Notes: generated by a model from the letters alone, not told the origin. A DNA stretch of 64,000 nucleotides from Edaphobacter sp. (GCA_035656355.1 DASRSR010000194.1:2691-66690), one strand, 5' to 3'; shown: positions 4,957 to 60,862, counted from the first letter of the stretch. A program made the numbers and translations.

Positions 4957-4967
4957 AGATCACCGCC

Positions 4968-5006: not shown

Positions 5007-5054
5007 GGAATGGCAATTTGCATTCGTTTTGCATTGCGGTTTTAGAATGGATGC

Positions 5055-7690: not shown

Positions 7691-7943
7691 CAGATCGGAT
7701 TGCCTGAGCAGGAGGGGGAAGTTCCGCTAATTGAGTTATGGCGGAACTTACTGCAGCTATCTTCTATTTATATAGAAGTAGTGTCGTAGCTATGAATTAA
7801 CTCAACTTAAAAATAGTTGTTGACAATAGCAGTGCCGAGGAAGGAAGATTGCAGTCCGTAAGATCCTTGTCATCGCGGTTCGAAATCATGCCATAAGTGA
7901 AATGTGAGTGCTCCAGCCAGAGAAGTGGATAGATGCAGCGCCA

Positions 7944-7963
7944 TAATGACAACGATGTCATTA
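7944..7963. promoter_or_regulatory. LacI-family operator candidate
   Basis: TAATGACA-ACGA-TGTCATTA palindrome with central CG, 28 bp before the TBDR start. Confidence 0.7.
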
Positions 7964-7991
7964 CGATCAAAAGATCGATTGAGGGAGAGGA

Positions 7992-11591: not shown

Positions 11592-11744
11592 TGCCCGTTG
11601 TCTGGTGGAGTGTGCATCGCACTCCGCCAAGCAATTCACAAAACGATTTTGGGCTATGTGTAGCCAAGTCTTCGTGCGAAATACTATGATCGGTCAGTTG
11701 CACCGCTGCGTGCTTACGACAATATGCATTGACCCGGAGTCTCA

Positions 11745-13091: not shown

Positions 13092-13108
13092 ACGCCTTGG
13101 AAAAGAGT

Positions 13109-14137: not shown

Positions 14138-14157
14138 ACTTTGGCTGGAAGGGTAAT

Positions 14158-14328
14158 CTAATCCTGTTTTGTTGCGCTGCTAATTTTTTCCTGTCTGTTT
14201 GCATCGGCATCCTTAACAACAGCATCCATTTCCTGCTGTTCCTCTAGTTCTTCCTGTGCCGCTTCAATGTTGTCGATTCGTTCCCTTATGCTGTCCAAAG
14301 TGTCGGGTGGATTTGTATTGTCATGCAT
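14158..14328 (-). CDS. Small acidic hypothetical protein (56 aa, absent from the ORF track)
   Basis: MHDNTNPPDTLDSIRERIDNIEAAQEELEEQQEMDAVVKDADANRQEKISSATKQD; AGGAG upstream. Confidence 0.55.
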   Translation of the reverse strand: MHDNTNPPDTLDSIRERIDNIEAAQEELEEQQEMDAVVKDADANRQEKISSATKQD

Positions 14329-14537
14329 AGCTCATTCTCCTGCACAAATCTTATGCCGAATATTTGATTCCGGCAGAGAATAAAGATCATTCATTTAGAG
14401 ATTGCTGCCCAGCCTCGATCTGAACGCATTTCGAAACGTAGAGATAAGCATTAGTCCTTTTTGAGCAGGGGATCGAGAACATTTCGTGCAAAATGTTTGC
14501 TTAGACATTTTGTGCAATTTGAGCCAAGGAGAACTTA

Positions 14538-16085
14538 ATGAACCGACGTGAACTTATTCGTTCAACGCTGCTGGCCGCCGGTGCCATGACGACGCGTGGA
14601 GCGCTGGCACAAGAGGTAATGCCATCTCATGGCAAACGCAGCTTTCCTTCGCCGCCGCGGCAAACCGATGGCGAGCGTATGCCGAACGTGCTCTGGATTG
14701 TTACCGATCAACAACGCGCTGACACGATTGCCGGATTGGGTAACTCCGCCATCCGCACGCCAAATTTAGATAAGCTCCTGAGCGAGTCAGTAACCTTTAC
14801 CAATGCATTTGTGCAGTGCCCCATCTGTTCGCCATCGCGCGCGAGCTTTCTCTCCGGACGCTATCCGCACACTACTGGGTTGCGTGCCAATGGCCAGCGA
14901 ATTCGCGCGACGGAAAAGCTGGTGACCAGGATTCTTGCCGATCAGCACTATACCTGTGGCCTCGCCGGCAAGCTGCATCTTTCTCCCTGTGCCGGAGGCC
15001 GTGTCGAAAACCGCATTGACGATGGATACGACATCTTTGAGTGGAGCCACGATATTAGTGATCAGTGGCCTGGCAAAAACCAGTGGTACAACTGGCTGGA
15101 TAAAAACAACGTAAAAATTCCCCCTCCTCCGGCCCACAGTGAGACCTGGGGAATGCCTATTGATCCCAAATATTCGCAGACGGCATGGTGCTCTGATCGG
15201 GCGATCGCCTTCATGCGTGCGCAGAAGCAGTTCAATCCGTGGTTGATGTCGGTGAATATCTTTCAGCCGCATCATCCCTTCTGGCCGACTGCGGATTATC
15301 TAAGTCGCTATGATCCAGCTAAAATGCCACAGCCTGCATATCACGAAGGCGAGCTGGAAAATAAGCCGATTTTCCAGCGGGTGGATCACACCGGCGCATA
15401 CGGTCATACCGCTATCTCCTTTGCCAAACTGGATGACTTGGGACATCGCAAGGTGACGGCTGCCTATTATGCGATGATCGAGCAGGTAGATACAGAAGTT
15501 GGCCGCATGATGAAGGCGCTGGAGGACAGCGGCCAGCTTGACGATACGATCGTCATCTTTATGAGTGACCACGGCGAGATGCTCGGCGATCACGGGTTTT
15601 ATCTCAAAGGGCCTTATTTCTACGATTGCTTGACACGAGTGCCGCTCATCATTCGTTGGCCTAAGAAGTACAAGCAGGGCATCAAGGTGAACGCGATGGT
15701 TGAGCTGTTGGACCTTGCACCTACTCTACTGGATGCTGCTGGTCTTCCTGTTCCGCCGGGAATGCAGGGCCGTTCGCTGACACCGCTTTTGACAGGCGCT
15801 ACAACGAAGCATCGGGATTCGGTCTATACGGAATACTTCGATGCCAACGCGCTATATGATCCGCCGCCCATGGCATCCTGCGTCCGGACGGAGAAGTACA
15901 AGCTGTCGTACTACAACAACATCTCTACAGGCGAGTTATACGATCTGGAAAAAGACCCAGGCGAATTCCACAACTTATGGAACTCCTCATCACATAAAGA
16001 TGTTCAGGCTGAGATGATGCAGCGCCTGGTTGCACGCATGATCGAGACTGTCGATCCGCTGCCGGAGAGAGTCTCCGCATGGTAG
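14538..16085 (+). CDS. Cys-type sulfatase (S1 family), Tat-exported
   Basis: MNRRELIRS Tat motif, TDQQR, CSPSRASFLSG, GKLH, SDHGEMLGDHG. Confidence 0.93.
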   Translation: MNRRELIRSTLLAAGAMTTRGALAQEVMPSHGKRSFPSPPRQTDGERMPNVLWIVTDQQRADTIAGLGNSAIRTPNLDKLLSESVTFTNAFVQCPICSPSRASFLSGRYPHTTGLRANGQRIRATEKLVTRILADQHYTCGLAGKLHLSPCAGGRVENRIDDGYDIFEWSHDISDQWPGKNQWYNWLDKNNVKIPPPPAHSETWGMPIDPKYSQTAWCSDRAIAFMRAQKQFNPWLMSVNIFQPHHPFWPTADYLSRYDPAKMPQPAYHEGELENKPIFQRVDHTGAYGHTAISFAKLDDLGHRKVTAAYYAMIEQVDTEVGRMMKALEDSGQLDDTIVIFMSDHGEMLGDHGFYLKGPYFYDCLTRVPLIIRWPKKYKQGIKVNAMVELLDLAPTLLDAAGLPVPPGMQGRSLTPLLTGATTKHRDSVYTEYFDANALYDPPPMASCVRTEKYKLSYYNNISTGELYDLEKDPGEFHNLWNSSSHKDVQAEMMQRLVARMIETVDPLPERVSAW

Positions 16086-16160
16086 TGGCTAAAAAATGAG
16101 TGCAGGGAATGGTGCTATTCACGGCTGAGATACTCGCGCACTGAATCTCTGCACCCATTT

Positions 16161-17798
16161 TTATGGGATGAATGCTTCCGGAGCGGAGCTATGACGATAT
16201 GGCGCATACCAGTTATGTTGCTTCGACCACTTCGTCTGGTACTTTGTGTTTTGCGGTCCAGTGGGAAGGCTGTCCTGGCAGCGGATCGTCCACATCAACA
16301 GCTCAGCCATTAGGCGCGCTTGGTCTGCAGCAACCGAGGGATGTCCAAAAAGATTTTTCAATTCGCAGGGGTCAGAGGCAAGATGATAAAGCTGACCATA
16401 GCCCATCATGTCGTAGATTAACTTCCAGTCACCCATGCGAACCATCTTCATGTTGCCGCTTTGGGTAACTTTGTTTAGTTCATCCCAGGAGAAAGAATCC
16501 TGCCGCTTATGTTCGGCGATAGTATAAGGAATATGATCAGATTCTTCATAGTAGAGTCCGCCTAACCCTACACCGGAGTAGATGCTGCGAAATTCTTCGC
16601 GAGGATAATTCTCACCCTGAAGCAACGGCCACAGGCTTCTTCCCTGGACGCCATTCGGAATCTCGGCTCCCATCACTTCGCATAGGGTCGGCATTACATC
16701 AGCCATAGAAACGAACGCTGAGGTCGAGACGCTGGATGGCTTGATTCCATAGCCGGACCACACCATTGGAATTCGCGTAAGTGATTCCGGCAGGCCGACG
16801 CCCTTGCGACCGAGGCCATAATCCATTAAATAGTCACCGTGATCGGCAAGGTAGACGATCACCGTATTCTTGAGGAGATCTTTTTGCTTCATGTGATTGA
16901 CCAATCGCGTTAGTTGGTCATCAAGCAGACGCAGCATGCCCAGATAATTGGATTTGTAACGTCGCCATTTTTCTTCTGTCAGAGGGAAAGCGCTCTGCTG
17001 CAGGCCATAAAGCCATTGAGCGCGATAGCCAAGATTTTTGAGCGCTTCAGGCCCAGCACAGCGGCCGGGTACCTGTTCGGGCGGAAACATATTCCAGTAC
17101 GGGGCAGGAACCTGCTCAGGATCATGTGGCTCTGGGAATCCTACCTGAAGAATAAAAGGCTGACTTCCGGCCTGCTCCATGAACTCGATAGCATCAGAGA
17201 CAATGCGATAGGGAATCTGGGTTTCAAGCGGAAACGGAGTGGGTCCTTCCGCGACATTGAAGGCAAGTTTTTTCAGCCACTCTTCATATTCGGTGATTTC
17301 CTTCGGGGCATTCGGCTCTTTATAGCCTCCGCCGTGCATGTATTCTCGCCAGAAATCGAGTCGCTCCGGTTTCAGATAAGTGTGGTTCTTCCCTGCGAGT
17401 CCGGTCCGGTATCCCTGGTCTTTTGCAACCTGGTAGAGATCTTTTTCAAAGAAGGCGGCCTCTGGATCAAGATTCATTCGGACACGGTGCGCTTCAGGCC
17501 AACGCCCGGTCAGCATACTGATACGGCTGGGAACACACAGAGGCGTCGTGCAATAGGCGCGGTTGAAGGCGACACCTTGGTCCGAGAGAGCATCAAGCGT
17601 TGGGCTGGTATCCAGCGGATAGCCTGAGCGTTTGGTCAAGCCGGCGCGATGCTGGTCTGAAACTATAAAAACAATATTGGGTTTGCTTGCGGATACCGGT
17701 TCAGCAGAAGGTGCCGCCAGCGCGTTTTGTTCCAGAGTTGGGACAGCTGCGCCGATTACGCCCAAAGATGCAGTTTTCAGAAAACTTCTACGCTCCAT
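16161..17798 (-). CDS. Cys-type sulfatase (S1 family), Tat-exported
   Basis: MERRSFLK Tat motif, SDQHR, CVPSRISMLTG, GKNH, ADHGD. Confidence 0.93.
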   Translation of the reverse strand: MERRSFLKTASLGVIGAAVPTLEQNALAAPSAEPVSASKPNIVFIVSDQHRAGLTKRSGYPLDTSPTLDALSDQGVAFNRAYCTTPLCVPSRISMLTGRWPEAHRVRMNLDPEAAFFEKDLYQVAKDQGYRTGLAGKNHTYLKPERLDFWREYMHGGGYKEPNAPKEITEYEEWLKKLAFNVAEGPTPFPLETQIPYRIVSDAIEFMEQAGSQPFILQVGFPEPHDPEQVPAPYWNMFPPEQVPGRCAGPEALKNLGYRAQWLYGLQQSAFPLTEEKWRRYKSNYLGMLRLLDDQLTRLVNHMKQKDLLKNTVIVYLADHGDYLMDYGLGRKGVGLPESLTRIPMVWSGYGIKPSSVSTSAFVSMADVMPTLCEVMGAEIPNGVQGRSLWPLLQGENYPREEFRSIYSGVGLGGLYYEESDHIPYTIAEHKRQDSFSWDELNKVTQSGNMKMVRMGDWKLIYDMMGYGQLYHLASDPCELKNLFGHPSVAADQARLMAELLMWTIRCQDSLPTGPQNTKYQTKWSKQHNWYAPYRHSSAPEAFIP

Positions 17799-21549: not shown

Positions 21550-21624
21550 TGGTGGGCACAGCAGGATTCGAACCTACGACTTCCACCGTGTGAAGGTGGC
21601 ACTCTACCGCTGAGTTATGCGCCC
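21550..21624 (-). tRNA. tRNA-Val(CAC)
   Basis: GGGCGCA acceptor stem, D-arm, CCACC-TTCACAC-GGTGG anticodon arm, GGTTCGAATCC T-arm, encoded CCA. Confidence 0.97.
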
Positions 21625-27264: not shown

Positions 27265-27328
27265 CTCAGGGGCTAAAGCCCCATTTTAGGCAACAACTTT
27301 ACGGCACGGCTGAAGCCGTGCCCTTAAC
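27265..27328. repeat. REP-like repeat, family A
   Basis: CTCAGGGGCTAAAGCCCC...TTTACGGCACGGCTGAAGCCGTGCCCTTAAC; also at about 4303, 38442 and 54987. Confidence 0.85.
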
Positions 27329-27348
27329 CAGGGGGCTTCATTTATAGA

Positions 27349-29438: not shown

Positions 29439-29613
29439 TTTTTCCTATTTGTACGCGACTCTTCAAGAGGTTTAGGCATCAGAATCTATTTATGTCGCCC
29501 TGTTTTTGATTCACTTAGGCTTCTGCCGGTTTGCGGACTGCATCTCATTTATAATCAATAACTAAGAGTATTAAAGCGAACTACGATCGCCAAAGCACGA
29601 AAGGAATCCGCCC

Positions 29614-29958
29614 ATGACCAAAGCAGACCTCGTTGACAAAGTGACCGCCCTTGGCGATCTCACCCGCCGCGATGGAGAGGTCATCGTTGACACACTTTTC
29701 GAGTCCGTTATCGGTGCTCTTAAGACCGGCGATAAAGTTGAAATTCGCGGCTTCGGCAGCTTCCGGACCCGCCAGCGCAATGCCCGAACAGGACGCAATC
29801 CCAAGACCGGAGCTAAGGTCGATGTGCCGGCCAAGCGGGTGCCTTTCTTTAAGCCATCCAAAGAGTTGCGTGATTTGGTCAATCCTCAGGGTGCCCACGA
29901 AGGTGGCGACAAGGAGCATAAAGAGACCGTCGATCCGCATCATCCTCCGGCTATGTAA
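29614..29958 (+). CDS. HU/IHF-family protein (IHF-beta-like)
   Basis: MTKADLV, VEIRGFGSF, GRNPKTG, FKPSKEL. Confidence 0.93.
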   Translation: MTKADLVDKVTALGDLTRRDGEVIVDTLFESVIGALKTGDKVEIRGFGSFRTRQRNARTGRNPKTGAKVDVPAKRVPFFKPSKELRDLVNPQGAHEGGDKEHKETVDPHHPPAM

Positions 29959-31994: not shown

Positions 31995-33221
31995 TCAGTC
32001 GTTTTTGAAGGCAGGGCAGTCGCTATTGCTACGCATGGTGGGCTGATTGATGTAGCCGAGAAAGGTGTTGGCGGCAATTTCACGCGGCGAACGCTGGCTG
32101 TATTCTCCGATGAGAAATTCGGTAAGGGTTGCCGGTATGGAGGCATGTTCGAAGGTTTCGTTGATGACGGTTCCGCGAGCGATCCAGGGCGAGATGAGGA
32201 CGGCGGGAACGCGAACGCCGAGCCGGTCGAAATGGAAGGGGTCAGGCGTGCCAGTCGCGGAGGGCTGGGCGACGAAGCCGTCGGGAGTGCAGGCGGGAGG
32301 CTTGACATGATCGTAGATGCCGCCGTGTTCGTCGTAGGCGATTAGGATCGCCGTATTGGGCCAGAGCTTTGGATTGTTGCGGATGGCATTGTAGACCTTG
32401 ACAATGAATTGTTCGCCAGCGCGCACATCGTGGTCCGGATGCTGGTCGGAAGCGATGAGTTCTCCGCCACCGTTAGGGTCTTCGTGGTCGGTGTAATTGG
32501 GCTCGATGAAGCTATATTCGGGGAGCTTGTTTCTGCTGCAGGCATCGAGGAAGTCCTGGAAGGTTCCGAAAAGGGAGGGTTGGTTCTGGAGGAGGTTAAT
32601 TACTTCCAGCGAGGAACTGGCCTGGTCGAAGTAGTAAAGCTGGGTGGAGTGGCCGGCGGCGACCAATCTTTCGTAGATGCTTTTGTATTGCTTGTTCCAG
32701 TAGAAGACGTCCATGCTGACCTGGCCGAATGACGTGCCATAGTGAGCGAAGGCACGATTGCAGAGTGTAGGGCCGGGAATGGAAGAGAACCAGCGATTGA
32801 AGACCGCAAATTCTGTGGCGAGTGTGGTGAGGACCGGCAGCTTATCCGGAGTGAAGTAGCTGAGAATTTTGTGAGAGTGGGCGACGCTGTGTTGCTGGTT
32901 GAAATAGCTTTTGACGAAGCCTTCCATATTTGGGGCGCGGTTCGGATTCTGCGCGGTGGTGACGCCGCCGAATATCTGAAGGTCAACGGCAGGGAAGTGA
33001 TGGTCGGGGTCGGGGTCGAGCTGGCTTTGATACTCGGCGTCGGGAGAAACGGTGATGGGTTCGCCGGTTGAATCGAGATTGGTCTCGTGTCCGGTGAGAC
33101 CATCGATTTGCGGATATTTAGTATGGAGCGCGCCTAACATGTGGTCGAAGGAGCGATTCTCCATCATGAGTACGACGACGTGCTTCAGGTTCTGAATGCC
33201 TGGCAGCGTTCTGTCCAGCAT
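31995..33221 (-). CDS. Phosphoesterase (phospholipase C/AcpA family), no signal peptide
   Basis: KHVVVLMMENRSFDHMLG, DPDH, GPTLCNR, YDEHGGIYDHV, LGVRVPAVLISPW. Confidence 0.9.
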   Translation of the reverse strand: MLDRTLPGIQNLKHVVVLMMENRSFDHMLGALHTKYPQIDGLTGHETNLDSTGEPITVSPDAEYQSQLDPDPDHHFPAVDLQIFGGVTTAQNPNRAPNMEGFVKSYFNQQHSVAHSHKILSYFTPDKLPVLTTLATEFAVFNRWFSSIPGPTLCNRAFAHYGTSFGQVSMDVFYWNKQYKSIYERLVAAGHSTQLYYFDQASSSLEVINLLQNQPSLFGTFQDFLDACSRNKLPEYSFIEPNYTDHEDPNGGGELIASDQHPDHDVRAGEQFIVKVYNAIRNNPKLWPNTAILIAYDEHGGIYDHVKPPACTPDGFVAQPSATGTPDPFHFDRLGVRVPAVLISPWIARGTVINETFEHASIPATLTEFLIGEYSQRSPREIAANTFLGYINQPTMRSNSDCPAFKND

Positions 33222-33427
33222 TTTCTGCCTCCGGAGGTATGGGGATGGGGAGCAAGCTTGCAGTCACCAAAGCGGGCCCGGTTACGACAGAGTTAGCAGG
33301 TTATGAGATTCGGAAATCATAGGGGCAAATAAGAAATTTGTCAGCAACTTTGTTTGCGATGGCGCGAGGACAGGATGTCCGGAATTTGGGCTAGAGTAGT
33401 GGGTTATTTGTTTGTGAAAGAACAGCC

Positions 33428-33507
33428 GCAGATCCTTCCCTTCGACTTTGCTCAGGGCAGGCTCTTCGTTTGGCCAGAAACGGGCCAAACTCCGCTCAGG
33501 ATGACAA
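33428..33507. repeat. REP-like repeat (family C, ending CGCTCAGGATGAC) with a nested 25-nt unit
   Basis: GCAGATCCTT[C]CCTTCGACTTTGCTCAGGGCAGGCT CTTCGTTTGG..CCAAACTCCGCTCAGGATGACAA. Confidence 0.75.
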
Positions 33508-33572
33508 GTTCTTATTGCTGCGAATTTTTGACTCAGCATATTAGAGACAGAGTTTTGTTGCCGGGATTGTGG

Positions 33573-34922
33573 TTAGATAAATGCCGCGATCAGCAGAGTG
33601 AGGCCTAGTGCAACGAAAGAGATGATGGTTTCGCAGACGGACCAACTTTTTAGAGTGTCGGCTACGGACATATTGAAGTATTCCTTCACCAACCAGAAGC
33701 CGCCGTCGTTGACGTGAGAAAAGCCGAGCGATCCGGCGCCGGTGGCGATGGCAAGCAGCGCCGGGTGCGATCCGGGACTATGCGCTGCGATAGGGGCCAC
33801 AATGGTAGCGGCGGTGGTCATGGCTACGGTGGCCGAGCCAGTGGAGATGCGAATGACGGTCGCCACTGTCCAGCCAAGCAGAAGCAGCGGCACATGAGCG
33901 TGGAGCGCGACCTGCACGATGGCTGCGGAAACCCCGCTGTCTTGCAGGATGCCGCCAAAGCCGCCGCCCGCGCCAACCAGCAGGGTTACGGTCGCGGTCG
34001 GGGCGAGGCACTCGTTGGAAAACTTAAGAATCGACTCTCGCGTAAAGCCACGCATGGTGCCGAGGGTGATGAAGCTGACGAGAACGCCGACTAACAGCGA
34101 TATGTCGGCATTGCCGAGAAGGTGAAGAGTTGAATTCAACGCACTGTTGGGGGTGGAGATTTTGTTGGCCCAGCTTCCGAGCAGCATCAGGAGAACAGGA
34201 AACAGCACGGTCGCGACGGTCAGGCTGAAGCTGGGCAGGCTGCGCTCTTCACCGTGGTCGACAAATTGCGCGGCCATGGGGTTTTCTTCATCGAGCTTGA
34301 TCCTGGGAGCGATGAATTTTGCGTAGAGCGGGCCGGCGATGATGGCGGTTGGAATGCCGATCAGTAGAGCGAAGAAGACAGTGCGGCCAAGGTCGGCGTT
34401 GTAGATAGCGACGGCAACCAGTGCCGCCGGATGCGGAGGCACAAGTCCGTGGACGACTGAGAGTCCGGCGACCATAGGCAGTCCGACCATCAACAGCGAG
34501 GTTTTGGTGCGGCGGGCGATGGTAAAGGCGATGGGAACAAGAAGAACGAAACCGACTTCAAAGAAGACCGGGAGGCCAACGATGAAGCCAATGGTAACCA
34601 TCGCCCAATGGACGCGCTTCTCGCCGAAGAAGCGGATCAGAGTATAGGCGATGCGGTCTGCGCCGCCGGACTCGGCCATCATCTTGCCAAGCATGGTGCC
34701 CAGGCCCACCACGATGGCGATGTGCCCCATGGTGCCGCCGAGGCCCACTTCAAAGGAGTGGACGATGGCATGCATCGGCATGCCCGTGGCCACCGCCAGC
34801 GCCAGCGACGTGACAAAGAGGACAATAAACGGATTCAGCTTCGCGACCGCGACCAGAAGGATAAGTGCTACGACCGAGATAGCTGCTGAAGTAAGCAGAA
34901 CGATCGAATGGTGATCGATCAT
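33573..34922 (-). CDS. GntP/DsdX-family sugar-acid:H+ permease
   Basis: KLNPFIVL, GKMMAESGGA, LVPPHP, GGGFG, SHVNDGGFWLVKEY. Confidence 0.93.
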   Translation of the reverse strand: MIDHHSIVLLTSAAISVVALILLVAVAKLNPFIVLFVTSLALAVATGMPMHAIVHSFEVGLGGTMGHIAIVVGLGTMLGKMMAESGGADRIAYTLIRFFGEKRVHWAMVTIGFIVGLPVFFEVGFVLLVPIAFTIARRTKTSLLMVGLPMVAGLSVVHGLVPPHPAALVAVAIYNADLGRTVFFALLIGIPTAIIAGPLYAKFIAPRIKLDEENPMAAQFVDHGEERSLPSFSLTVATVLFPVLLMLLGSWANKISTPNSALNSTLHLLGNADISLLVGVLVSFITLGTMRGFTRESILKFSNECLAPTATVTLLVGAGGGFGGILQDSGVSAAIVQVALHAHVPLLLLGWTVATVIRISTGSATVAMTTAATIVAPIAAHSPGSHPALLAIATGAGSLGFSHVNDGGFWLVKEYFNMSVADTLKSWSVCETIISFVALGLTLLIAAFI

Positions 34923-34970
34923 AGGGCTGGAACCATATGGGGCCTTTTCATTTCAGGAGCGTGTGTTGAA

Positions 34971-35363
34971 TCAGCGGGCAGGTGCTTTGTAGGCGACGCA
35001 CTCAATCTCTACCTTGCAGTCGACGACCATGCTGGAGACGACGCAGGCGCGTGCTGGTGGATTTTCGCCAAAGTATTGGCGAAAGACGCCATTGAATGAC
35101 TGGAAATCGCGAGGGTCGTCGAGCCAGACGCCGCAGCGAACTACATGCTCGGGGCCGTAGCCTGCTTCCTTAAGAATTGCGAGAAGGTTCTGGATAGCCT
35201 GATGGGATTGGGCGACGATGTTGCCTGAAGTGATTTCGCCATTCACCATGGGAACCTGACCGGAGACATACAGCCATCCGTCTGCTTCGACGGCGCGGGC
35301 AAAGGGAAGATGCTGACCTCCTGTTCCTTTACCGCCTTCTACGCCATAACGCTTGATGCTCAT
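34971..35363 (-). CDS. RidA/YjgF/UK114 family enamine/imine deaminase
   Basis: MSIKRYG..., LYVSGQVP, FGENPPARACV, VEIECVA. Start at ATG 35363, not the ORF-track start. Confidence 0.9.
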   Translation of the reverse strand: MSIKRYGVEGGKGTGGQHLPFARAVEADGWLYVSGQVPMVNGEITSGNIVAQSHQAIQNLLAILKEAGYGPEHVVRCGVWLDDPRDFQSFNGVFRQYFGENPPARACVVSSMVVDCKVEIECVAYKAPAR

Positions 35364-35400
35364 CTCTGTTGCTCCTTTGCTGCAAAATTGAGGTTGAATC

Positions 35401-36849
35401 TTAGTGTTGTGCCTGTCCGCGGAGAAGAAACCTTCCGGCGCGCTGCCCGGTCGGTTCGCCATTCTGATAGGAAAGCACACCGTTAACCCAGACGCCGAGG
35501 ATGCCTTTCGCTGGACGAGCAGGATCGGTGAAAGTTGCAGTGTCCTCAACTGCTGCCGGGTCGAAGAGCACCAGGTCGGCGCTGTGGCCTTCCTTGATTC
35601 GACCGCGGTCGTTAAGTCCAAACCGCGCGGCCGGCATCCCGGTCATTTTGTGAATGGCCGTTGCGAGAGGAAACAGCTTCAGTTCACGGCTGTAACGGCC
35701 TAGCACTCGAGGGAACGTTCCCCAGAGGCGGGGGTGCGGTAACGGATCGTTGGGCAGACCATCGGAGCCGATCATGGTTGCCGGATGCTGGAGGATGCGG
35801 CGCATGTCGTCTTCTGAGATGCTGTGATAGATCGCGCCTGCAGGTTGCAACCGACGTGCGGCTTCGATTTGCTCTACATTCCAGATTTCCGCTATCTCCG
35901 CGACGGTTTTGCCTGCCATTTCAGGGTGAGGCTTGCACCACGTAATAGTAACTTTGACGCGTTCGTCTACCTGGCGCAGGTCGAGCGTGCTGGAACCGGC
36001 AGCATAGGGGTAGCAATCACAGCCGACGGGCTGTGAGCTGCGGGCGTGGTCGAGTGCATGTAAGACTTCTTCGCTACGCCCCCAATTGTCGATGCCTGCA
36101 CACTTCAAATGTGAGATCACGATAGGGATGCGACATTCGCGTCCAATTCTGAATGCCTCGTTCATTGCATTCAGAATTGTCTCCGTCTCTGAGCGCATGT
36201 GCGTCGTGTAGATTGCGCCGTGCGTTGCCAATGGTTCGGCCAGGGAAAGAACTTCTTCGGTAGGAGCGGAGTTGGCAGAGAGATATGCGAGTCCTGAGCT
36301 TAGACCTAGCGCGCCATGATCGAGTGCTTCGGTTAGCTGCGTGCGCATTTGCTCAATCTCGGTTGCCGTCGCTGCGCGGTCCAGGCGGTCCATGTGGTTG
36401 TTGCGCAGTGCGGTATGGCCGACGAGAGCTGCGACGTTGATTGCAGGCGATGCGGACTGCACGGCTTCAACGTAGGAGGCAAACGTCGGATAACGGAACG
36501 CCTCTACTTCGCCCAGGAGATTCATGGGGTCGGGCGGCTCTCCATTGAGCCGTACTGGAGAGGCGCTGATGCCGCAGTTGCCTACGATGACGGTGGTGAC
36601 GCCCTGCGATAGCTTGGGCAACATTCCGGGTGTGCGGATGACGCTCGTGTCGTCATGCGTATGCACATCGATGAAGCCTGGAGCCAGCACATTTCCATTC
36701 GCTTCAATAACTTCTCGGCCGGTGTACTCTGGAATCTGCCCAACGGCGCAGATGCGGCCACTGTCGAGCGCAACATCGCCGGTTACAGGCGCAGCGCCGC
36801 TGCCGTCGAGAATACTTGCATTACGGATAAGCGTGTCGCAGAGGGGCAT
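35401..36849 (-). CDS. N-acyl-D-amino-acid deacylase family amidohydrolase (OngB-like)
   Basis: PGFIDVHTHDD, GNCGIS, THMRSE, SHLKC, GSDG, HPRLWGTFPRVLG. Confidence 0.9.
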   Translation of the reverse strand: MPLCDTLIRNASILDGSGAAPVTGDVALDSGRICAVGQIPEYTGREVIEANGNVLAPGFIDVHTHDDTSVIRTPGMLPKLSQGVTTVIVGNCGISASPVRLNGEPPDPMNLLGEVEAFRYPTFASYVEAVQSASPAINVAALVGHTALRNNHMDRLDRAATATEIEQMRTQLTEALDHGALGLSSGLAYLSANSAPTEEVLSLAEPLATHGAIYTTHMRSETETILNAMNEAFRIGRECRIPIVISHLKCAGIDNWGRSEEVLHALDHARSSQPVGCDCYPYAAGSSTLDLRQVDERVKVTITWCKPHPEMAGKTVAEIAEIWNVEQIEAARRLQPAGAIYHSISEDDMRRILQHPATMIGSDGLPNDPLPHPRLWGTFPRVLGRYSRELKLFPLATAIHKMTGMPAARFGLNDRGRIKEGHSADLVLFDPAAVEDTATFTDPARPAKGILGVWVNGVLSYQNGEPTGQRAGRFLLRGQAQH

Positions 36850-36939
36850 ATATCTTTTTTAGAGTAATGTCTGGCGATGCGCCAGAATACCATGATGGAA
36901 GAGTCTTTATCTTGCAGCGAAGATGGGGTTGATTTTTTT

Positions 36940-38205
36940 ATGACGGAAAAGATGACGGAGATTGATCAGCGTATTAACCCGCTGAACAAAGGGCTGGGTA
37001 GTTTTGAACAGCTGCTGGATGCCAATGCAGTTGCCGCATCCAACTGGAACCTGCTGCGGGAAGATCTCAGCCTGCCGACTGCCGTGCTGTATCAGCAAAA
37101 GGTAATGCACAACCTCAACTGGATGCAGGATTTTATTAAGGCTTATGGTGTGAAGCTGGCGCCGCACGGCAAGACGACCATGGCGCCGAAACTGTTCGAC
37201 ATGCAACTGAAAGGTGGAGCGTGGGGCATTACGCTGGCCACCGCGCACCAGACACGTGTTGCTTATGCACATGGTGTGCGCCGTATTTTGATGGCGAACC
37301 AACTGGTTGGCAAACAGAATATGGCCATCATTTCGAAGCTGCTGGAAGACCCGGAATTTGAATTTTTCTGTCTGGTCGATTCCCCTCAGCTGGTCGAGCA
37401 GCTAGGCAAGTTCTTCAGCGCTCGAGGCCAGAGTCTGCAGGTACTGATTGAGTTGGGCGTGCAGGGGGGCCGTACCGGTGTCCGCGACGAGGAACAACTG
37501 CAGGCGGTGCTGAATGCTCTGGACAAATGGCGGGAGAATATTCGCCTGTGCGGGATTGAAATTTATGAAGGCGTTCTGGAGGACGAAACTTCGATCCGCA
37601 ATTTTCTCCAGCGGGCAGTTGATGTTACGAACCGACTAAGAGAACGCTTTGAGCGCAAGCCGGCGATTCTTTCGGGTGCGGGCTCAGCCTGGTATGACGT
37701 GGTTGCGGAGGTCTTCGCGGGTGCGGGATTGGGAGACGCTGTTGATGTCGTTTTGCGCCCCGGCTGTTATCTGACGCATGATGTCGGGGTTTATCGTGTT
37801 GCACAGCAGCAGATTTTGGAGCGCAATCCGGTTGCTCATCGGATGCACACGAGCCTGCAACCGGCGCTGCAATTGTGGGCTTATGTGCAATCCATTCCGG
37901 AAGCAGAGAAGGCGATTATTGCTCTCGGTAAGCGAGATGCGGCCTTTGATGCCGGCTTGCCCACGCCTGCACTTCATTACCGACCGGGAGCGGATGCTCC
38001 GGTGGCTGCTCCGCAAGGCTGGCAGCTTACCAAGATGATGGACCAGCATGCCTACCTTCAGATCGGCAAAGGCGACGATATTCAGGTAGGCGACATGATC
38101 GGTTTTGACATTTCGCACCCATGCCTCACATTCGATAAGTGGAAGTATCTTCCAGTTTTGAATGCAGAGTACAAGGTTGTGGATGTTGTGCAGACGTTCT
38201 TCTGA
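36940..38205 (+). CDS. PLP-dependent amino-acid deaminase, D-serine dehydratase (Dsd1)/D-threonine aldolase-like fold (OngC-like)
   Basis: LAPHGKT (PLP Lys), GRTGVR, LRPGCY, GKRD, DQH, HPCLTFDKW. Start uncertain (36877-36952). Confidence 0.88.
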   Translation: MTEKMTEIDQRINPLNKGLGSFEQLLDANAVAASNWNLLREDLSLPTAVLYQQKVMHNLNWMQDFIKAYGVKLAPHGKTTMAPKLFDMQLKGGAWGITLATAHQTRVAYAHGVRRILMANQLVGKQNMAIISKLLEDPEFEFFCLVDSPQLVEQLGKFFSARGQSLQVLIELGVQGGRTGVRDEEQLQAVLNALDKWRENIRLCGIEIYEGVLEDETSIRNFLQRAVDVTNRLRERFERKPAILSGAGSAWYDVVAEVFAGAGLGDAVDVVLRPGCYLTHDVGVYRVAQQQILERNPVAHRMHTSLQPALQLWAYVQSIPEAEKAIIALGKRDAAFDAGLPTPALHYRPGADAPVAAPQGWQLTKMMDQHAYLQIGKGDDIQVGDMIGFDISHPCLTFDKWKYLPVLNAEYKVVDVVQTFF

Positions 38206-38221
38206 TCTTTAAATTTTGTTT

Positions 38222-38380
38222 GCCCCATTCATCGCGGCGATGGAGTTGGTGTGATGAATGGGGGACCCAGCATTCGAGATGAGTTGAAGAAAAATACAGG
38301 GTTCCTTCGACTTCGCGCTACGCGCTTCGCTCAGGATGACGTGAGTTGAAGTTGTGAGTGGGCACAGGCCTTCGGCCCTA
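38222..38380. repeat. Cluster of REP-like repeats (families B, C and E fragments)
   Basis: CCCCATTCATCGCG..GATGAATGGGG; CCTTCGACTTCGCG..CGCTCAGGATGAC; GGCCTTCGGCCCT. Confidence 0.7.
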
Positions 38381-38415
38381 AGATAAAAAACACGCCACTG
38401 CAAGATGCGTTGGCT

Positions 38416-38533
38416 CTAGGGAAGCTCTGATTAAGTATTCCCTCAGGGGCTAAAGCCCGGTTCAAGTTGGGTGCTTTACGGCGTGGCTGAAGCCACGCCC
38501 CTTCAAAACAAAGACTTATTAGAGTCTCCCTAG
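38416..38533. mobile_element. 110-bp MITE with IS5-like ends and CTAG target duplication, carrying a family A REP
   Basis: CTAG|GGAAGCTCTGATTAAGT...ACTTATTAGAGTCTCC|CTAG. Confidence 0.65.
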
Positions 38534-39657
38534 TGCTGTGGAGACCCGGCGTTGCCGGGACCGCCGACCGGTTGCAGACGCGGAATTCTCTCCTCAACGG
38601 GCGGCAGAGGTGGGAAAGGTGCGTGTGGTTCTGCCTGATACCAGTAGGCAACTGAATAGAAGTTGTCGGAGCGATGGTTTGCGTGGCCGTGCTCGATGGT
38701 TGCCTTGATGGACTTTGTGAAGGGAATCGGCGAGTCGAGGTGAAAACGGTAGACGCTGGAGCGGCTGCCCGCCAGCTCTTCTCCTACTACCGGAGCGCCG
38801 TAGAGCTGATAAGAGAACGGCTGGCCGCCGAAGTCCCACGCGCCCAGAAAGTAGTCTTCCGAGCCGGTGCCGGCGATTGACGGGCGCTTTGCTCCGTCGA
38901 TGAAGAACATATCGTCGCCTTCGCCCCACCACGAGTCCTGATTTTGCAGAACGGACATGGTTACGCCGACGAACTGGCCATGGCCTTTTGCCTCCATCCA
39001 GACGTAGTTGTCTTTACCGTCGAGGTTGGCCTTGTTATTAACCAGCGGTGTGCCGTTGTTGGCCCAGTCATTGGTCCAGCCGTGGTTAGGAGTTGCCTGA
39101 CGGTACTGTGCATGGAAGTACACGGTGTCGCTCGGCAGCGGCTGCGACATGGTGCGGTAGTCGATGTTGTAGTAGAGGCTGTTGATCCGGTCCTTACCCT
39201 CGTTGGTGATGGTAATGCGCGCATGATGCTGGAACGGCATTGGGAAGTAGCAGTTGAGTGCCTTGACGCTGCCGACGGAGAGCATCTCCGACTGCCAGTT
39301 GTGGTAGGTGCCCAGGCCGAGGCCGAAGAAGTCGCCGATGGGAGTTTCCACGCTCGGTGTCTGCTCTCCATCCCAATAGATGCGGAGCACGATGCGCTTG
39401 AGGTGGTACTGCTCGGGGTCGTTGATGGTGAACCAGATGTGCGAGATTACACCGGGACCGTCGGCGTCCAGAACAGTTTCGGTTGCGCCGGGGGCGACTG
39501 TGCGGAAGTCGGCATTACGCCCGGTGGGATCGGCGCTGGAGGCTCGGTGCTGTGTGTAGGTCTGCTGACGGGTGAGATCCGGCTGCCAATGTGAGATCTG
39601 TGCCGGAGCCACGGCTGTGAAGCTCGCGGCCAGTAAAAGAGTTGCAATTCGCATCAT
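38530..39657 (-). CDS. DUF2961 / GH172-like glycoside hydrolase, secreted
   Basis: Signal peptide; GPGVISHIW, SVETPIGDFFG, WWGEGDDMFFIDG, GTGSEDYF, IEHGHAN. Confidence 0.88.
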   Translation of the reverse strand: MMRIATLLLAASFTAVAPAQISHWQPDLTRQQTYTQHRASSADPTGRNADFRTVAPGATETVLDADGPGVISHIWFTINDPEQYHLKRIVLRIYWDGEQTPSVETPIGDFFGLGLGTYHNWQSEMLSVGSVKALNCYFPMPFQHHARITITNEGKDRINSLYYNIDYRTMSQPLPSDTVYFHAQYRQATPNHGWTNDWANNGTPLVNNKANLDGKDNYVWMEAKGHGQFVGVTMSVLQNQDSWWGEGDDMFFIDGAKRPSIAGTGSEDYFLGAWDFGGQPFSYQLYGAPVVGEELAGSRSSVYRFHLDSPIPFTKSIKATIEHGHANHRSDNFYSVAYWYQAEPHAPFPPLPPVEERIPRLQPVGGPGNAGSPQH

Positions 39658-39710
39658 CGGAAAGGTCTCCTCAATAAATCAGGTTCATGCAAACAAGAAT
39701 GTAGCCGGGC

Positions 39711-41039
39711 CTAGTCGATGCCCAAGCTGGTTTGCAGATGTTCCAGAGAGATGTTGCTGGTCTCCGGGTAGTAAAAAAGCACAAGAAAGAAGTCGATCAC
39801 CATCATGACGGAGAAGAAGATAAACGGATATGCACCGGAAGAACTGGCCATCATAGGAAACACCAGCGAGATAACCGCGTTGGTGACCCAGTGCGAAGAG
39901 CTGCCCAGGCTTTGCCCTTTTGAGCGTACCCGTGTGGGAAAGACCTCGCTGATATAGACCCAGATGACTGCTCCCTGTGAGATAGCGAATAGGACGATAT
40001 AGACGATCAAAAGCCAGACAAGCAGGTTGAGATGGCGATGGGTAAAGAAGACATAAGAGACTGCGGCCAAACACAGTGCAAGGCCTGCGGTGCCGACCAG
40101 CAGAAGTTTTTTGCGGCCGAATTTGTCGATCACCGACATGGCTACCAGAGTAGCGACCAGATTCGCAGCGCCGACGGCGACGGCCTGCAGATCGCCGGAC
40201 ATTTTGGTCGCGCCTGCGAGAGCAAAGATGTCATTCAGGTAATACAAGATTGCGTTGATGCCGGAGAGTTGGCAGAACATGCCGACTGTAATGGCGAGAA
40301 AGACAGGAAACCGGTAGCGTTTGGAAAAGAGTGAATCGACGGAACCGTGCTGTTCCAGATGAACAGAGGCTGTGATCTCATCGAGCGCTTCCTGAGGGTG
40401 TGGAATCCCGGTAAGTCGAAGGACTTCGAGCGCCTCATCCGATTTTGTCTGGGTGACCAGCCAGCGCGGGCTGCGCGGAATGGTATAAAGCGCCAGCAGA
40501 AAAAGAATTGCGGGAATGCCCGAGACGCCCAGTTGCCAGCGCCACTCGTGCGCGCCAAGATGCAAGGTCCCAAGCAGAAAATTGGAGACGTAGGCCAGCA
40601 GGATGCCGACAACTACATTGACTTGAAATGCGCCGACCAACCGGCCGCGCCATTCCGTCGGCGCGATTTCAGCGATATACATTGGCCCGAGCACGGAGGA
40701 TCCTCCAATGCCAAGACCGCCGATGAAGCGGAAGAAGATGAGTGCCGACCAGTTCCAGGCAAAGGCGCAGCCCAGGGCCGAGATGACATAGAACGCTGCC
40801 ATGACCCGGAGACTGTCGCGGCGGCCGAAGCGCTGTCCGGGAATGCCTGCCCCCATGGCTCCGATGACGGTTCCTACCAACGCGCTGGAGACGGTGACTC
40901 CGAGAAGCGTGGGAGAGAGATGATAGGTCTGGGTCAGGGCCTGAGTTGTTCCGGAGATGACTGCGGTATCGAACCCAAAGAGCAGTCCTCCGAGCGCGCC
41001 GACAATGGTGCTTTTAATTACGTGTGAGTTGATGGTCAT
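39711..41039 (-). CDS. MFS sugar porter (XylE/AraE-like)
   Basis: GGLLFGFDTAVISG, PMYIAEIAP, QLSGINAILYY, WVYISEVFP, PET. Confidence 0.93.
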   Translation of the reverse strand: MTINSHVIKSTIVGALGGLLFGFDTAVISGTTQALTQTYHLSPTLLGVTVSSALVGTVIGAMGAGIPGQRFGRRDSLRVMAAFYVISALGCAFAWNWSALIFFRFIGGLGIGGSSVLGPMYIAEIAPTEWRGRLVGAFQVNVVVGILLAYVSNFLLGTLHLGAHEWRWQLGVSGIPAILFLLALYTIPRSPRWLVTQTKSDEALEVLRLTGIPHPQEALDEITASVHLEQHGSVDSLFSKRYRFPVFLAITVGMFCQLSGINAILYYLNDIFALAGATKMSGDLQAVAVGAANLVATLVAMSVIDKFGRKKLLLVGTAGLALCLAAVSYVFFTHRHLNLLVWLLIVYIVLFAISQGAVIWVYISEVFPTRVRSKGQSLGSSSHWVTNAVISLVFPMMASSSGAYPFIFFSVMMVIDFFLVLFYYPETSNISLEHLQTSLGID

Positions 41040-51426: not shown

Positions 51427-52086
51427 ATGGCAGGCATACTTTTTATTATTTCGGCGCCTTCAGGCTCAGGAAAATCAACGCTGGTCAGCCAGTTGCGAAC
51501 GCTGGTGGAGGGGCTGGATTTCTCCATTTCTTATACAACGCGCGCTCCTCGCGGGTCGGAGGAGAACGGACGCGAATACCACTTCACCAGTCGCCAGGAG
51601 TTTGAGCGCATGATTGCAGCGGGAGATTTTCTGGAGTGGGCCGAGGTTTTCGGTAACTACTATGGAACGGCGCTTTCCGCGTTGGACCGTGCACGGGAGG
51701 CCGGAAAGGACCTGCTGCTGGACATCGATGTGCAGGGCGCGCTACAGGTGATGAAAAAGCTGCCTGAAGCGGTGTCGATCTTCATTATGCCGCCAAGTCC
51801 GCAGGTGCTGGAGATGCGCTTGCGGAACCGCAGTGAAGCAGAGCATATGACCTCTGAGGCGGTGATTGAAGGCCGGTTGGCCGAAGCGCGCAATGAACTA
51901 AAACGCATCGGAGACTACAAATACGCGCTGGTCAATGATGTACTTGATCAGGCGGTAGCGGAGATGCGGGCAATCGTCCTGTTTGAGCGAGGAGTGCGCG
52001 ACGGAGTGCAGGCGCTGGCCGAGAGCTGCCGAACCAATGCTGCCTCGCCCAGATTAAAAAGCGCGTTGAAGACATTTGGAGAATAA
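51427..52086 (+). CDS. gmk: Guanylate kinase
   Basis: SAPSGSGKST, SYTTRAPR, NYYGT, LDIDVQG. Confidence 0.97.
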   Translation: MAGILFIISAPSGSGKSTLVSQLRTLVEGLDFSISYTTRAPRGSEENGREYHFTSRQEFERMIAAGDFLEWAEVFGNYYGTALSALDRAREAGKDLLLDIDVQGALQVMKKLPEAVSIFIMPPSPQVLEMRLRNRSEAEHMTSEAVIEGRLAEARNELKRIGDYKYALVNDVLDQAVAEMRAIVLFERGVRDGVQALAESCRTNAASPRLKSALKTFGE

Positions 52087-52279
52087 TGGACGTGTTGGAG
52101 TAATCTTCCTGTTATTGCGATGCGGTAGATTTTCGAGGAGCGTCCGTTTTCCTTGAGAGAAAACGACCATGAGTCCTGAGGTCTTCCGAGACATCCACAG
52201 GAAATTGCTCTATCCACACATAATTTGTGTGGGCTACCAGGGCTGTGCTGAGTTAGATTCTGTTTACGGAGGAAGACGC

Positions 52280-52489
52280 ATGACGGCTGACAACACTCTC
52301 CACAATAAATACAGTCTGGTAAAGGGCGCGGCACGGCGGGCTCGGCAGTTGCAGTCCGGGGCTTCGCCTCTGATCGTGGCCAAGTCGATGAAGGCTTGCC
52401 GCGTGGCTCAGCAGGAGATTGAGCAGGGGCATGTGAAGTTTGTTCTACCGGAAAAGCCAGAGACGCCAACGCTCGATCACACCCACTGA
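52280..52489 (+). CDS. rpoZ: RNA polymerase omega subunit
   Basis: NKYSLVKGAARRARQL, AQQEIEQG; follows gmk; GGAGG RBS. Confidence 0.9.
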   Translation: MTADNTLHNKYSLVKGAARRARQLQSGASPLIVAKSMKACRVAQQEIEQGHVKFVLPEKPETPTLDHTH

Positions 52490-52509
52490 CGACGCGATAG
52501 CATAGAGCC

Positions 52510-53382
52510 ATGGCAGCAGATGCGCAGGACGAACTGCGGGCGTATGTCGAGTACCTCCGCGATATGGGCATTCGTGACTTCTATCGCCGTGGCGAACCGC
52601 TTGAGCCTATGGCGGCGACTCCAATCGTTGAGGTGGCATCTCCTCAGATGCCAGAGCTTCTTATTGTGCCGCCGCAGCCTCTTCCAGTGCCGGTTGCTCC
52701 ACCTCCAGCTCCATCGCCGCTAAGCGGATTTCAGGAGAGTTCCATTCCCAAATTGATCAGTTTTGATGATCTTGCTCCTTTACCGCAGGAACGTATTCCG
52801 GTTTCTGAGAGAGCGGCCGCGTTGCAGGCTATCCATGAAGAGATTGGCGACTGCACACGGTGTCCGCTGGCCTACGCGGGGCGCCGCAACATTGTTTTTG
52901 GTGAAGGCGATCCGGGCGCGCGGCTGATGTTTGTCGGTGAAGGACCGGGCGCGGACGAGGATACGTCTGGGCGTCCGTTTGTAGGTAAGGCCGGACAGTT
53001 ACTGAACAATATGATTACGGCGATGGGCCTGAAGCGGGAAGAGGTTTATATCGCCAATATTGTGAAGTGCCGTCCACCTGGGAACCGCGTTCCCGAACCG
53101 GTTGAGGCGAATACCTGCACTCAGTTTCTAGTGAAGCAGGTGGATGTAGTGCAGCCAGAGGTCATCGTGGCACTTGGGGCAACAGCAGCGACGTATTTGT
53201 TGGGGGTGAAGCGGTCGCTGGCGGCGCTGCGCGGCCATTGGCATAGTTGTCGCGGCGCGAAGCTGGCAGTAACCTACCATCCAGCTTTTCTGCTGCGCGA
53301 TCCGAGACAGAAGGCAGAAGCCTGGAAGGACCTGCAGATGGTGATGAAGGAGATGGGACTGAAGACACCGGCAAAGGGGTAG
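52510..53382 (+). CDS. Uracil-DNA glycosylase family 4 (Fe-S)
   Basis: CTRC, GEGPG, GRPFVG, NIVKCRPP, TYHPAFLLR. Confidence 0.93.
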   Translation: MAADAQDELRAYVEYLRDMGIRDFYRRGEPLEPMAATPIVEVASPQMPELLIVPPQPLPVPVAPPPAPSPLSGFQESSIPKLISFDDLAPLPQERIPVSERAAALQAIHEEIGDCTRCPLAYAGRRNIVFGEGDPGARLMFVGEGPGADEDTSGRPFVGKAGQLLNNMITAMGLKREEVYIANIVKCRPPGNRVPEPVEANTCTQFLVKQVDVVQPEVIVALGATAATYLLGVKRSLAALRGHWHSCRGAKLAVTYHPAFLLRDPRQKAEAWKDLQMVMKEMGLKTPAKG

Positions 53383-54830: not shown

Positions 54831-55051
54831 GCGCGCTTTCAGCGCTTCGATTGGTGCGGTGTCGTGTACCTGGGGCTGCGCCCCAGGCTGGTATAAAACG
54901 GGCCTTCGGCCCTAAAAGACGAGCAAATATCTGTCAGGAAAATTGCTCAATGGAATTGAAAAAGCGTCGGTCAGTAAGAACTGTTCCTCAGGGGCTAAAG
55001 CCCCATTGGTTTTTCTCCTGGCTGCGGCACGGCTGAAGCCGTGCCCTTAAC
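54831..55051. repeat. REP cluster (families E and A)
   Basis: GCGCGCTTTCAGCGCT..CCTGGGGCTGCGCCCCAGG..GGGCCTTCGGCCCT; CTCAGGGGCTAAAGCCCC..CGGCACGGCTGAAGCCGTGCCCTTAAC. Confidence 0.8.
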
Positions 55052-55204
55052 GAGAGATGTAAGTGAGACGTTAATGCCTATAGCTCAGGTCGCTGGGCTA
55101 GGTGTTCTTAACGAGAGGGGCTCAAGCAAAACATTAGTGGCACGGCTGAATTGAAAGCTGTAAAGCACCAAACTTTTCAATATCGCTAAAACGAGGAGGA
55201 TTGA

Positions 55205-60543: not shown

Positions 60544-60813
60544 CTACTCGAGCAAATGCAGTTCTTTGCCGGGCTTAAAGCGAACGGCCTTGCCGGGGGC
60601 AATGGCGACTTCAGCGCCTGTCCTCGGATTGCGACCGATGCCTGTCTTGCGCGGCTTAACGGTGAAGACGCCAAAACCGCGTAATTCGATGCGGTCACCG
60701 GCGATCAGATTTTGCTTCATGCTATCGAAGATGGCGTCTACGGCAGCCTCTGCTTTTGTTCTTGGCAGACCGGTACGCTCAACAACCCGTTGAATTAGAT
60801 CCTGTTTAATCAT
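60544..60813 (-). CDS. HU/IHF-family DNA-binding protein
   Basis: MIKQDLI, IELRGFGVF, GRNPRTG, FKPGKEL. Confidence 0.93.
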   Translation of the reverse strand: MIKQDLIQRVVERTGLPRTKAEAAVDAIFDSMKQNLIAGDRIELRGFGVFTVKPRKTGIGRNPRTGAEVAIAPGKAVRFKPGKELHLLE

Positions 60814-60862
60814 TTTGGGCCGCCGTCCTTGGGCTGTAATTTGCAACTAAAACTTTTTTTGT

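Follow-up and report, generated by a model that had tools for sequence, protein, structure and literature searches.

What do four neighbouring genes of a soil acidobacterium break down, when their database names, 'D-aminoacylase' and 'amino acid deaminase / D-serine dehydratase', speak of D-amino acids and their homologs in a marine bacterium act on an oxidised sugar from chitin? The genes occupy positions 33573-38205 of a 64,000-nucleotide stretch of DNA from Edaphobacter sp. (GCA_035656355.1 DASRSR010000194.1:2691-66690), which in its full length we call the window. Three lie on the minus strand: a GntP-family permease (33573-34922; PF02447, E 3.5e-152; TIGR00791, 461 bits), a RidA-family protein of the OngD type (34971-35363; PF01042, E 2e-26) and a D-aminoacylase-like amidohydrolase of the OngB type (35401-36849; PF07969). 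The fourth, on the plus strand, is a fold-type-III pyridoxal phosphate (PLP) enzyme of the OngC type (36940-38205; PF01168 (Ala_racemase_N) and PF14031 (D-ser_dehydrat)), divergent from the amidohydrolase gene across an intergenic region, the presumed promoter region, of about 90 bp (36850-36939). The initial annotation had described this same arrangement, and Pfam domains and coordinates agree with it. Spacings of 37 bp between amidohydrolase and RidA genes and 48 bp between RidA and permease genes fit a single operon for the minus-strand trio.

The oxidised sugar is 2-acetamido-2-deoxy-D-gluconate (GlcNAc1A), the C1-oxidised end product of the action of lytic polysaccharide monooxygenases (LPMOs) on chitin. 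LPMOs are common among the bacteria and fungi of soil; to our knowledge, what becomes of their C1-oxidised products from chitin has been worked out only in marine Gammaproteobacteria. In Pseudoalteromonas prydzensis ACAM 620, OngB deacetylates GlcNAc1A, OngC deaminates D-glucosaminate to 2-keto-3-deoxygluconate (KDG) and KdgK phosphorylates KDG, and the RidA-family protein OngD is encoded directly after ongB; the complete oxidative chitin pathway has been reported only in Gammaproteobacteria and one betaproteobacterium (Jiang et al., 2022, PMC9537276). The initial annotation had proposed that the standard labels in the window hide a catabolic module for GlcNAc1A, which may let the organism live on chitin that others have oxidised. 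We conclude that the module probably does serve the catabolism of GlcNAc1A, or of a very close 2-acylamino-aldonate, with homology, specificity residues, phylogeny and the context of a related Ralstonia cluster in agreement.

Three of the four genes are orthologous to OngB, OngC and OngD of the P. prydzensis ong locus (L009), whose OngB is 100% identical to the chain of that enzyme (PpOngB) in the PDB. The alignment with OngB and OngC that the initial annotation had called for shows full-length similarity, at 53% and 45% identity, respectively. For the amidohydrolase the BLASTP alignment with PpOngB spans 479 residues, and matches in the PDB comprise KleDacyl of Klebsiella pneumoniae, PpOngB and D-aminoacylases (E 1e-190 to 1e-118), with identities of 59% to KleDacyl, 53% to PpOngB and 49% to AfDam, the D-aminoacylase of Alcaligenes faecalis (1M7J). 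All metal, catalytic, carboxylate-binding and acetamido-binding residues are kept in a gap-free HMMER alignment, in which H63/H65, C92, H217, H247, K249, Y189, Y280, D363 and R374 stand opposite PpOngB H68/H70, C97, H222, H252, K254, Y194, Y285, D368 and R379. The residues that bind the C3 and C5 hydroxyls of GlcNAc1A are also kept, and the motifs GLAY, HLKCAG and SSTLDLxQV are common to both proteins.

Specificity for GlcNAc1A in PpOngB has been assigned to A193, A256, S292, Q298 and G348, which differ from the residues of D-aminoacylases; little of the efficiency survives in the mutants S292T and Q298A, with 1.3% left after the exchange of Ser for Thr at 292 (Wang et al., 2025, PMC12017989). 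The corresponding positions of the window protein are A188, A251, S287, Q293 and S343, four identical and one a conservative exchange (Ser for Gly; C or N in other members of the clade). AfDam shares the fold and general catalytic machinery but carries F191, M254, T290, L298 and M346 at these positions, with Arg in place of L298 in the Bordetella enzyme BbDam (3GIP, an N-acyl-D-glutamate deacylase). The small and polar A, A, S, Q, S of the window protein thus match neither the hydrophobic pocket of AfDam nor the Arg-bearing pocket of BbDam, and lack the Thr that D-aminoacylases have at the place of PpOngB S292.

This signature is rare among homologs. A search of 1.84 billion cluster representatives (50%-identity clusters) returned 24,819 hits, and among the best 150 representatives only two carry the OngB signature, both of them the top full-length ones. 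In a neighbour-joining tree of 39 sequences (100 bootstraps; a simple distance tree, not maximum likelihood) the signature-bearing proteins separate as a group in 88 of 100 bootstraps; this group unites the window protein with four acidobacterial relatives, with KleDacyl and PpOngB, with other gammaproteobacterial OngBs and with the two cluster representatives. Within it the acidobacterial proteins are a clade in 100 of 100, and AfDam and the Bordetella enzyme fall in a separate clade. These findings support the prediction that the amidohydrolase is an OngB-type GlcNAc1A de-N-acetylase whose fold resembles that of D-aminoacylases.

The PLP enzyme aligns with PpOngC along its full length (45% identity over 424 residues, E 4e-132, BLASTP). 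Its match to PDB 3GWQ (E 1e-172) is far stronger than those to D-Thr aldolases and D-threo-3-hydroxyaspartate dehydratase (E 1e-19 to 1e-9). The motifs PHGKT and HPC are present in seven of seven aligned members, including the window, PpOngC, Ralstonia, Klebsiella and acidobacterial proteins; from the structures of Dsd1 and D-threo-3-hydroxyaspartate dehydratase, we take PHGKT to hold the PLP lysine and HPC to be the metal site. The open reading frame (ORF) extends upstream to 36877 and could start at 36877, 36940 or 36952, of which 36940 is likely from comparison with relatives and with 3GWQ. Adjacent and divergent placement of this gene relative to the OngB-type gene recurs in every relative examined. 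The alignments and motifs support a predicted role as an OngC-type D-glucosaminate deaminase/dehydratase that yields KDG and ammonia.

The RidA protein had been noted by the initial annotation as a generic helper that clears enamines. Its membership in the module stands, and the view of it as a merely generic helper does not, as it corresponds to a specific cluster gene, ongD: it is 66% identical to P. prydzensis OngD over 126-127 residues, full length, its gene follows the OngB-type gene as ongD follows ongB, and its PAR arginine motif is kept. Against solved RidA structures it scores no higher than 85 bits, and it misses the cut-off of the canonical RidA subfamily (95 bits against 106), which marks it as a member of a distinct subgroup. 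On GlcNAc1A, strain ACAM 620 cannot grow without OngD, to which no role has yet been assigned (Jiang et al., 2022, PMC9537276). In the window, the protein is probably a deaminase of 2-imino-3-deoxygluconate in its enamine/imine forms.

The GntP permease falls below every equivalog cut-off, those of the gluconate transporters and of DsdX included. It reaches 315.6 bits with the DsdX model NF007395, whose cut-off is 618, and models of gluconate transporters score higher. It is 74-82% identical to copies in acidobacterial relatives and 65% identical to the copy in a Ralstonia cluster. We propose that it imports sugar acids, putatively GlcNAc1A, together with H+, and takes the place that the SSS-family transporter OngIT has in P. 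prydzensis.

Gene context in relatives ties the module more closely to sugar acids. The closest named homologs come from Acidobacteriaceae/Terriglobales (75-83% identity), and the window sequence also occurs in a soil metagenome run. We compared four distinct acidobacterial loci (L001, L003, L024 and L025; OngC identity 69-75%) and two duplicate placements (L002 and L026). All four, and both duplicates, keep the layout of OngC divergent from OngB, an optional RidA and GntP, and all carry a PF10282 lactonase gene after GntP (5321-6577 in L001, 5324-6577 in L003, 5810-7069 in L024 and 5852-7090 in L025). The L001 lactonase, the sole copy examined, has a twin-arginine translocation (Tat) signal and resembles the periplasmic gluconolactonase PpgL of Pseudomonas aeruginosa (E 5e-45). 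Its place beside GntP favours a sugar acid as substrate, since a lactonase has no role in the use of D-amino acids, and it may matter in acidic soils, where aldonolactones would hydrolyse slowly. In two relatives the module adjoins amino-sugar genes (L024, 11339-17565; L025, 16877-21317), namely a fusion of a NamZ-like exo-muramidase with a beta-lactamase domain, an SSF symporter, a DeoR regulator, a SIS-domain protein and a PfkB kinase.

A second line of context, and the most telling, comes from the plant pathogen Ralstonia solanacearum, whose megaplasmid carries the same OngC | OngB-RidA-GntP block (L027; CP076116.1, KME70_20640-20670, locus 3989-11210). Identities to the window proteins are 65% for OngB, 65% for OngC, 76% for RidA and 65% for GntP. 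The order is Eda, GntP, RidA, OngB-like and RpiR, divergent from OngC-like and a sugar kinase; the block of four is thus identical to that of the window, transporter family included, and the Ralstonia cluster adds to it a regulator of the RpiR type (46% identity to PpOngR), a PfkB kinase that NCBIfam matches best to models for kinases of KDG and of 2-keto-3-deoxygalactonate (KDGal), and an Eda, 2-keto-3-deoxy-6-phosphogluconate (KDPG) aldolase, that passes curated NCBIfam cut-offs. The KDG-kinase-like gene and Eda connect a GntP-type cluster with the steps that use KDG and KDPG and, taken with the lactonase of the acidobacterial relatives, speak for a sugar acid and against D-amino acids. The cluster suggests that the pathogen is able to break down GlcNAc1A or glucosaminate. 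Megaplasmid records of Ralstonia that contain an OngC homolog, generically annotated, number 134, of which this cluster was the one read in detail; its own genes are named 'amidohydrolase family protein' and 'amino acid deaminase'.

The closest solved structure to the window amidohydrolase appears at first to point elsewhere. KleDacyl (PDB 9G5M/9GV8; 9G5M, E 4e-190) was published as a 'D-acylase' of N-acetyl-D-amino acids, in a paper that nowhere mentions GlcNAc1A; its Km is about 19-32 mM for Ac-D-Phe and Ac-D-Met and above 50 mM for Ac-D,L-Trp, with kcat/Km of 1.5-2.8 per min per mM (PMC12149444). Like the window protein, it has OngB-type residues, including Gln292 (KleDacyl numbering), and belongs to the same clade. 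We found its gene, at 100% identity, on the K. pneumoniae plasmid NZ_OP378649.1 (L028; locus 2921-10185), among homologs of OngC, OngD (82% to PpOngD), OngIT (56%) and OngR (46%) and beside genes annotated as 2-dehydro-3-deoxygalactonokinase (KDGal kinase) and as aldolase of 2-keto-3-deoxy-6-phosphogalactonate (KDPGal). Given these neighbours, KleDacyl is an enzyme of an ong cluster. Promiscuity is the simplest reading of its D-acylase activity, which nonetheless demonstrates that the OngB clade is able to attack N-acetyl-D-amino acids in vitro. In nature KleDacyl probably works on an oxidised amino sugar, perhaps one of galacto configuration, rather than on N-acetyl-D-amino acids.

These assignments suggest the following route. 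The GntP permease would import free GlcNAc1A, which in the relatives would first be formed from its lactone by the periplasmic lactonase. The OngB-type amidohydrolase would then remove the acetyl group to give D-glucosaminate and acetate. From D-glucosaminate the OngC-type PLP enzyme would eliminate the C3 hydroxyl and the amino group, with the OngD-type RidA speeding hydrolysis of the enamine/imine intermediate, to release KDG and ammonia. KDG would finally be phosphorylated and cleaved by a KdgK and an Eda encoded elsewhere in the genome.

Read by their database names, the same genes would make up a salvage pathway for N-acyl-D-amino acids or for D-Ser and D-Thr, with a DsdX-like GntP as importer, a D-aminoacylase, a Dsd1-type dehydratase forming a 2-oxo acid and RidA quenching the enamine. 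Several observations lean this way or weigh against GlcNAc1A as the substrate. The identity of the amidohydrolase to a true D-aminoacylase, AfDam, nearly equals that to PpOngB, so that a few residues, together with the tree and gene context, carry its assignment as an OngB; of those residues, the one at PpOngB position 348 is Ser and not Gly, and the acidobacterial relative L024 has Thr at position 292. KleDacyl hydrolyses N-acetyl-D-Met, -Phe and -Trp, if weakly (PMC12149444), PpOngC accepts D-Ser and D-Thr too as substrates for deamination (Jiang et al., 2022, PMC9537276), and the GntP family includes DsdX. Two of the acidobacterial relatives lack RidA. Against the D-amino-acid pathway, the pocket residues of the AfDam type are all replaced by small or polar residues of the OngB type; PpOngB and two homologs, down to 57% identity, hydrolyse only GlcNAc1A, and PpOngB, PaOngB and PfOngB are inactive on ten N-acetyl-D-amino acids (Wang et al., 2025, PMC12017989). 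The DsdX model is missed by a wide span of bits, and the Ralstonia kinase and Eda, like the lactonase, would have no role in the use of D-amino acids. We dropped D-amino-acid salvage as the main explanation once the KleDacyl gene itself turned out to lie in a Klebsiella ong cluster, and now regard it as very improbable.

The chemistry might instead be the one proposed and the substrate come from a source other than LPMO-cut chitin: N-acetylglucosamine (GlcNAc), glucosamine (GlcN) or N-acetylgalactosamine (GalNAc) would be oxidised in the periplasm or outside the cell, by the cell or its neighbours, to a lactone, and pass by way of a PpgL-like lactonase, GntP and OngB/C/D to KDG; or a related N-acyl-amino-aldonate would be preferred. 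The pairing of lactonase and GntP in all four distinct acidobacterial relatives mirrors periplasmic glucose oxidation, PpgL being a characterised match in the PDB, and the two relatives that adjoin DeoR, SIS and NamZ amino-sugar genes fit such a source. The KDGal kinase and KDPGal aldolase annotations in Klebsiella hint that sugar configuration differs within the clade. With a Km of about 10 mM for GlcNAc1A (Wang et al., 2025, PMC12017989), PpOngB may have a natural substrate that suits it better. Nor is any LPMO, GH20 OngA or dedicated TonB receptor found with the cluster: the Pfam scan of window ORFs revealed no AA10, GH18, GH19, GH20 or PfkB domain and no KDPG aldolase, in 44 of the 46 chosen ORFs and one alternative frame (the small ORFs 29581-29943 and 60544-60846 and the ORFs 51948-52571 and 61662-62309 lay outside the scan). 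On the other side, neither the window nor any of the relatives' loci has a sugar dehydrogenase or oxidase linked to the cluster, and the window itself has no lactonase, a tblastn search with the L001 protein finding neither gene nor remnant there. The Ralstonia ortholog uses an aldolase of the Eda type, which is gluco-configured, and the residues contacting the C3 and C5 hydroxyls of GlcNAc1A are kept. We consider such an origin or substrate unlikely and prefer catabolism of GlcNAc1A or its very close analogue.

Comparison with known systems defines how the window module differs. It shares with the P. prydzensis cluster full-length homologs of OngB, OngC and OngD and the order of ongB and ongD. 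The P. prydzensis genes form an ongCRBD operon, whereas ongC is divergent in the window; import there is by the SSS-family OngIT, here by a GntP-family permease, and the host is a soil acidobacterium. P. prydzensis also has the TonB receptors OngOT, the GH20 enzyme OngA, KdgK and OngR, and the window has none of these and no LPMO nearby: OngOT-1, OngR, OngIT, KdgK and OngA have no match at E < 1e-3 in tblastn against the whole window. The initial annotation had placed KDG kinase and aldolase outside the window, and Pfam and the KdgK search bear this out. The full set of Jiang et al. (2022), in which an AA10 LPMO, OngOT, OngA, OngIT, KdgK and OngR accompany OngB, OngC and OngD, is not contained in the window, which, being part of the genome only, lacks kdgK, eda, a regulator, LPMO, chitinase, GH20 and lactonase genes, a further point against our reading.

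Pseudomonas oxidises glucose in the periplasm by means of Gcd, the lactonase PpgL and uptake of gluconate through GntP. The acidobacterial relatives resemble this route in pairing a Tat-exported PpgL-like lactonase with GntP in one operon. They differ from it in that no dehydrogenase is linked to the cluster, and the window itself is without the lactonase; the predicted cytoplasmic steps are deacetylation and deamination to KDG, in contrast to phosphorylation of gluconate in Pseudomonas. The DgaE system is like OngC in that a PLP enzyme turns a 2-amino-aldonate into a 2-keto-3-deoxy acid. It differs in uptake by a phosphotransferase system, a phosphorylated substrate, the absence of a deacetylase and an unrelated transporter, and the systems are not homologous; the PLP fold of DgaE is presumably unrelated to that of OngC.

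The pathway is already known; what is new here is a member from another phylum, a different family of importer and the absence of oligosaccharide-handling genes, and the pairing of lactonase and GntP in the relatives is the most original element. A specialist may find the result unsurprising, as a sound re-annotation with ecological implications for the turnover of chitin in soil. It corrects the misleading labels 'D-aminoacylase' and 'amino acid deaminase / D-serine dehydratase', and places the published 'D-acylase' structure KleDacyl in an ong cluster. If the reading is right, soil Acidobacteriaceae, which are abundant and hard to culture, and Ralstonia could use GlcNAc1A as a source of carbon and nitrogen without LPMOs of their own, which would form a cross-feeding link in soil chitin turnover. 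Our literature searches found no paper that links GlcNAc1A to Acidobacteria, nothing relevant on glucosaminate and GapMind, on glucosaminic acid and Acidobacteriaceae or on fitness data, and no experimental data on the Ralstonia cluster.

More tentatively, we suggest that soil Acidobacteriaceae and Ralstonia may share a stripped-down oxidative chitin pathway of scavengers, which would take up free monomer only, through GntP, and rely on the LPMOs or oxidases of others, with a Tat-exported PpgL-like lactonase in most acidobacterial relatives as a possible adaptation to acidic soils; or they may possess a self-contained route of periplasmic GlcNAc or GlcN oxidation, the amino-sugar parallel to the Gcd-PpgL-GntP route for gluconate. 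We hold this wider picture to be possible but doubtful. Either version, if true, would be a new non-phosphorylative entry of amino sugars to the Entner-Doudoroff pathway in an abundant soil phylum.

The divergent region contains a perfect 7-3-7 palindrome, TCTGGCG-ATG-CGCCAGA (36870-36886), that shares bases with the first ATG in frame in the extended OngC ORF. This palindrome could be the operator of a regulator encoded elsewhere; an intergenic alignment shows it to be only partly conserved in the closest acidobacterial loci, and we therefore do not claim it as an established operator. A scan for sigma-70 promoters and terminators over 33100-38700 gave nothing above shuffled expectation, Rfam has no match in 33000-39000, and the only tRNA (21550-21624) lies far from the cluster. 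In a rhizosphere RNA-seq run, short contigs 90-97% alike to the window cover all four genes, weak evidence for transcription of close relatives. A rhizosphere RNA-seq contig from run X3 joins 37182 to 38035 at a depth of 54, skipping 852 nt inside the OngC gene; this junction is probably an assembly chimera of related sequences.

The module is flanked on one side by a phosphoesterase gene and on the other by genes for a DUF2961 protein and a major facilitator superfamily (MFS) sugar transporter, which follow immediately downstream of the OngC gene and are encoded on the opposite strand (38530-41039). This pair, of which we take DUF2961 to be family GH172, is not kept beside the module in relatives. 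Between it and the OngC gene, the stretch 38300-38510 stands out in soil metagenomes by a very high depth of contigs and by numerous loose ends, which points to a repeated element common to many genomes. GC-rich hairpins resembling repetitive extragenic palindromes (REP) occur in intergenic DNA here and at 27302-27331, 55025-55054 and 4400-4429, for example GGCGTGGCTGAAGCCACGCC and CGGCACGGCTGAAGCCGTGCC.

Elsewhere in the window, a separate glycan-utilisation locus (5987-17798) encodes an MFS sugar transporter, a TonB-dependent receptor of 1199 aa, a second MFS transporter, a LacI regulator and two sulfatases. The sulfatases have C-terminal domains like that of N-sulphoglucosamine sulphohydrolase, and the locus may act on sulfated amino-sugar polymers. 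The genes between 41875 and 48582 run in the order LptC/LptA-like fusion (812 aa), LptB-like ATP-binding cassette (ABC) ATPase, rpoN, hpf and rapZ, a conserved lpt-rpoN-hpf-rapZ arrangement with an unusually long fused Lpt protein.

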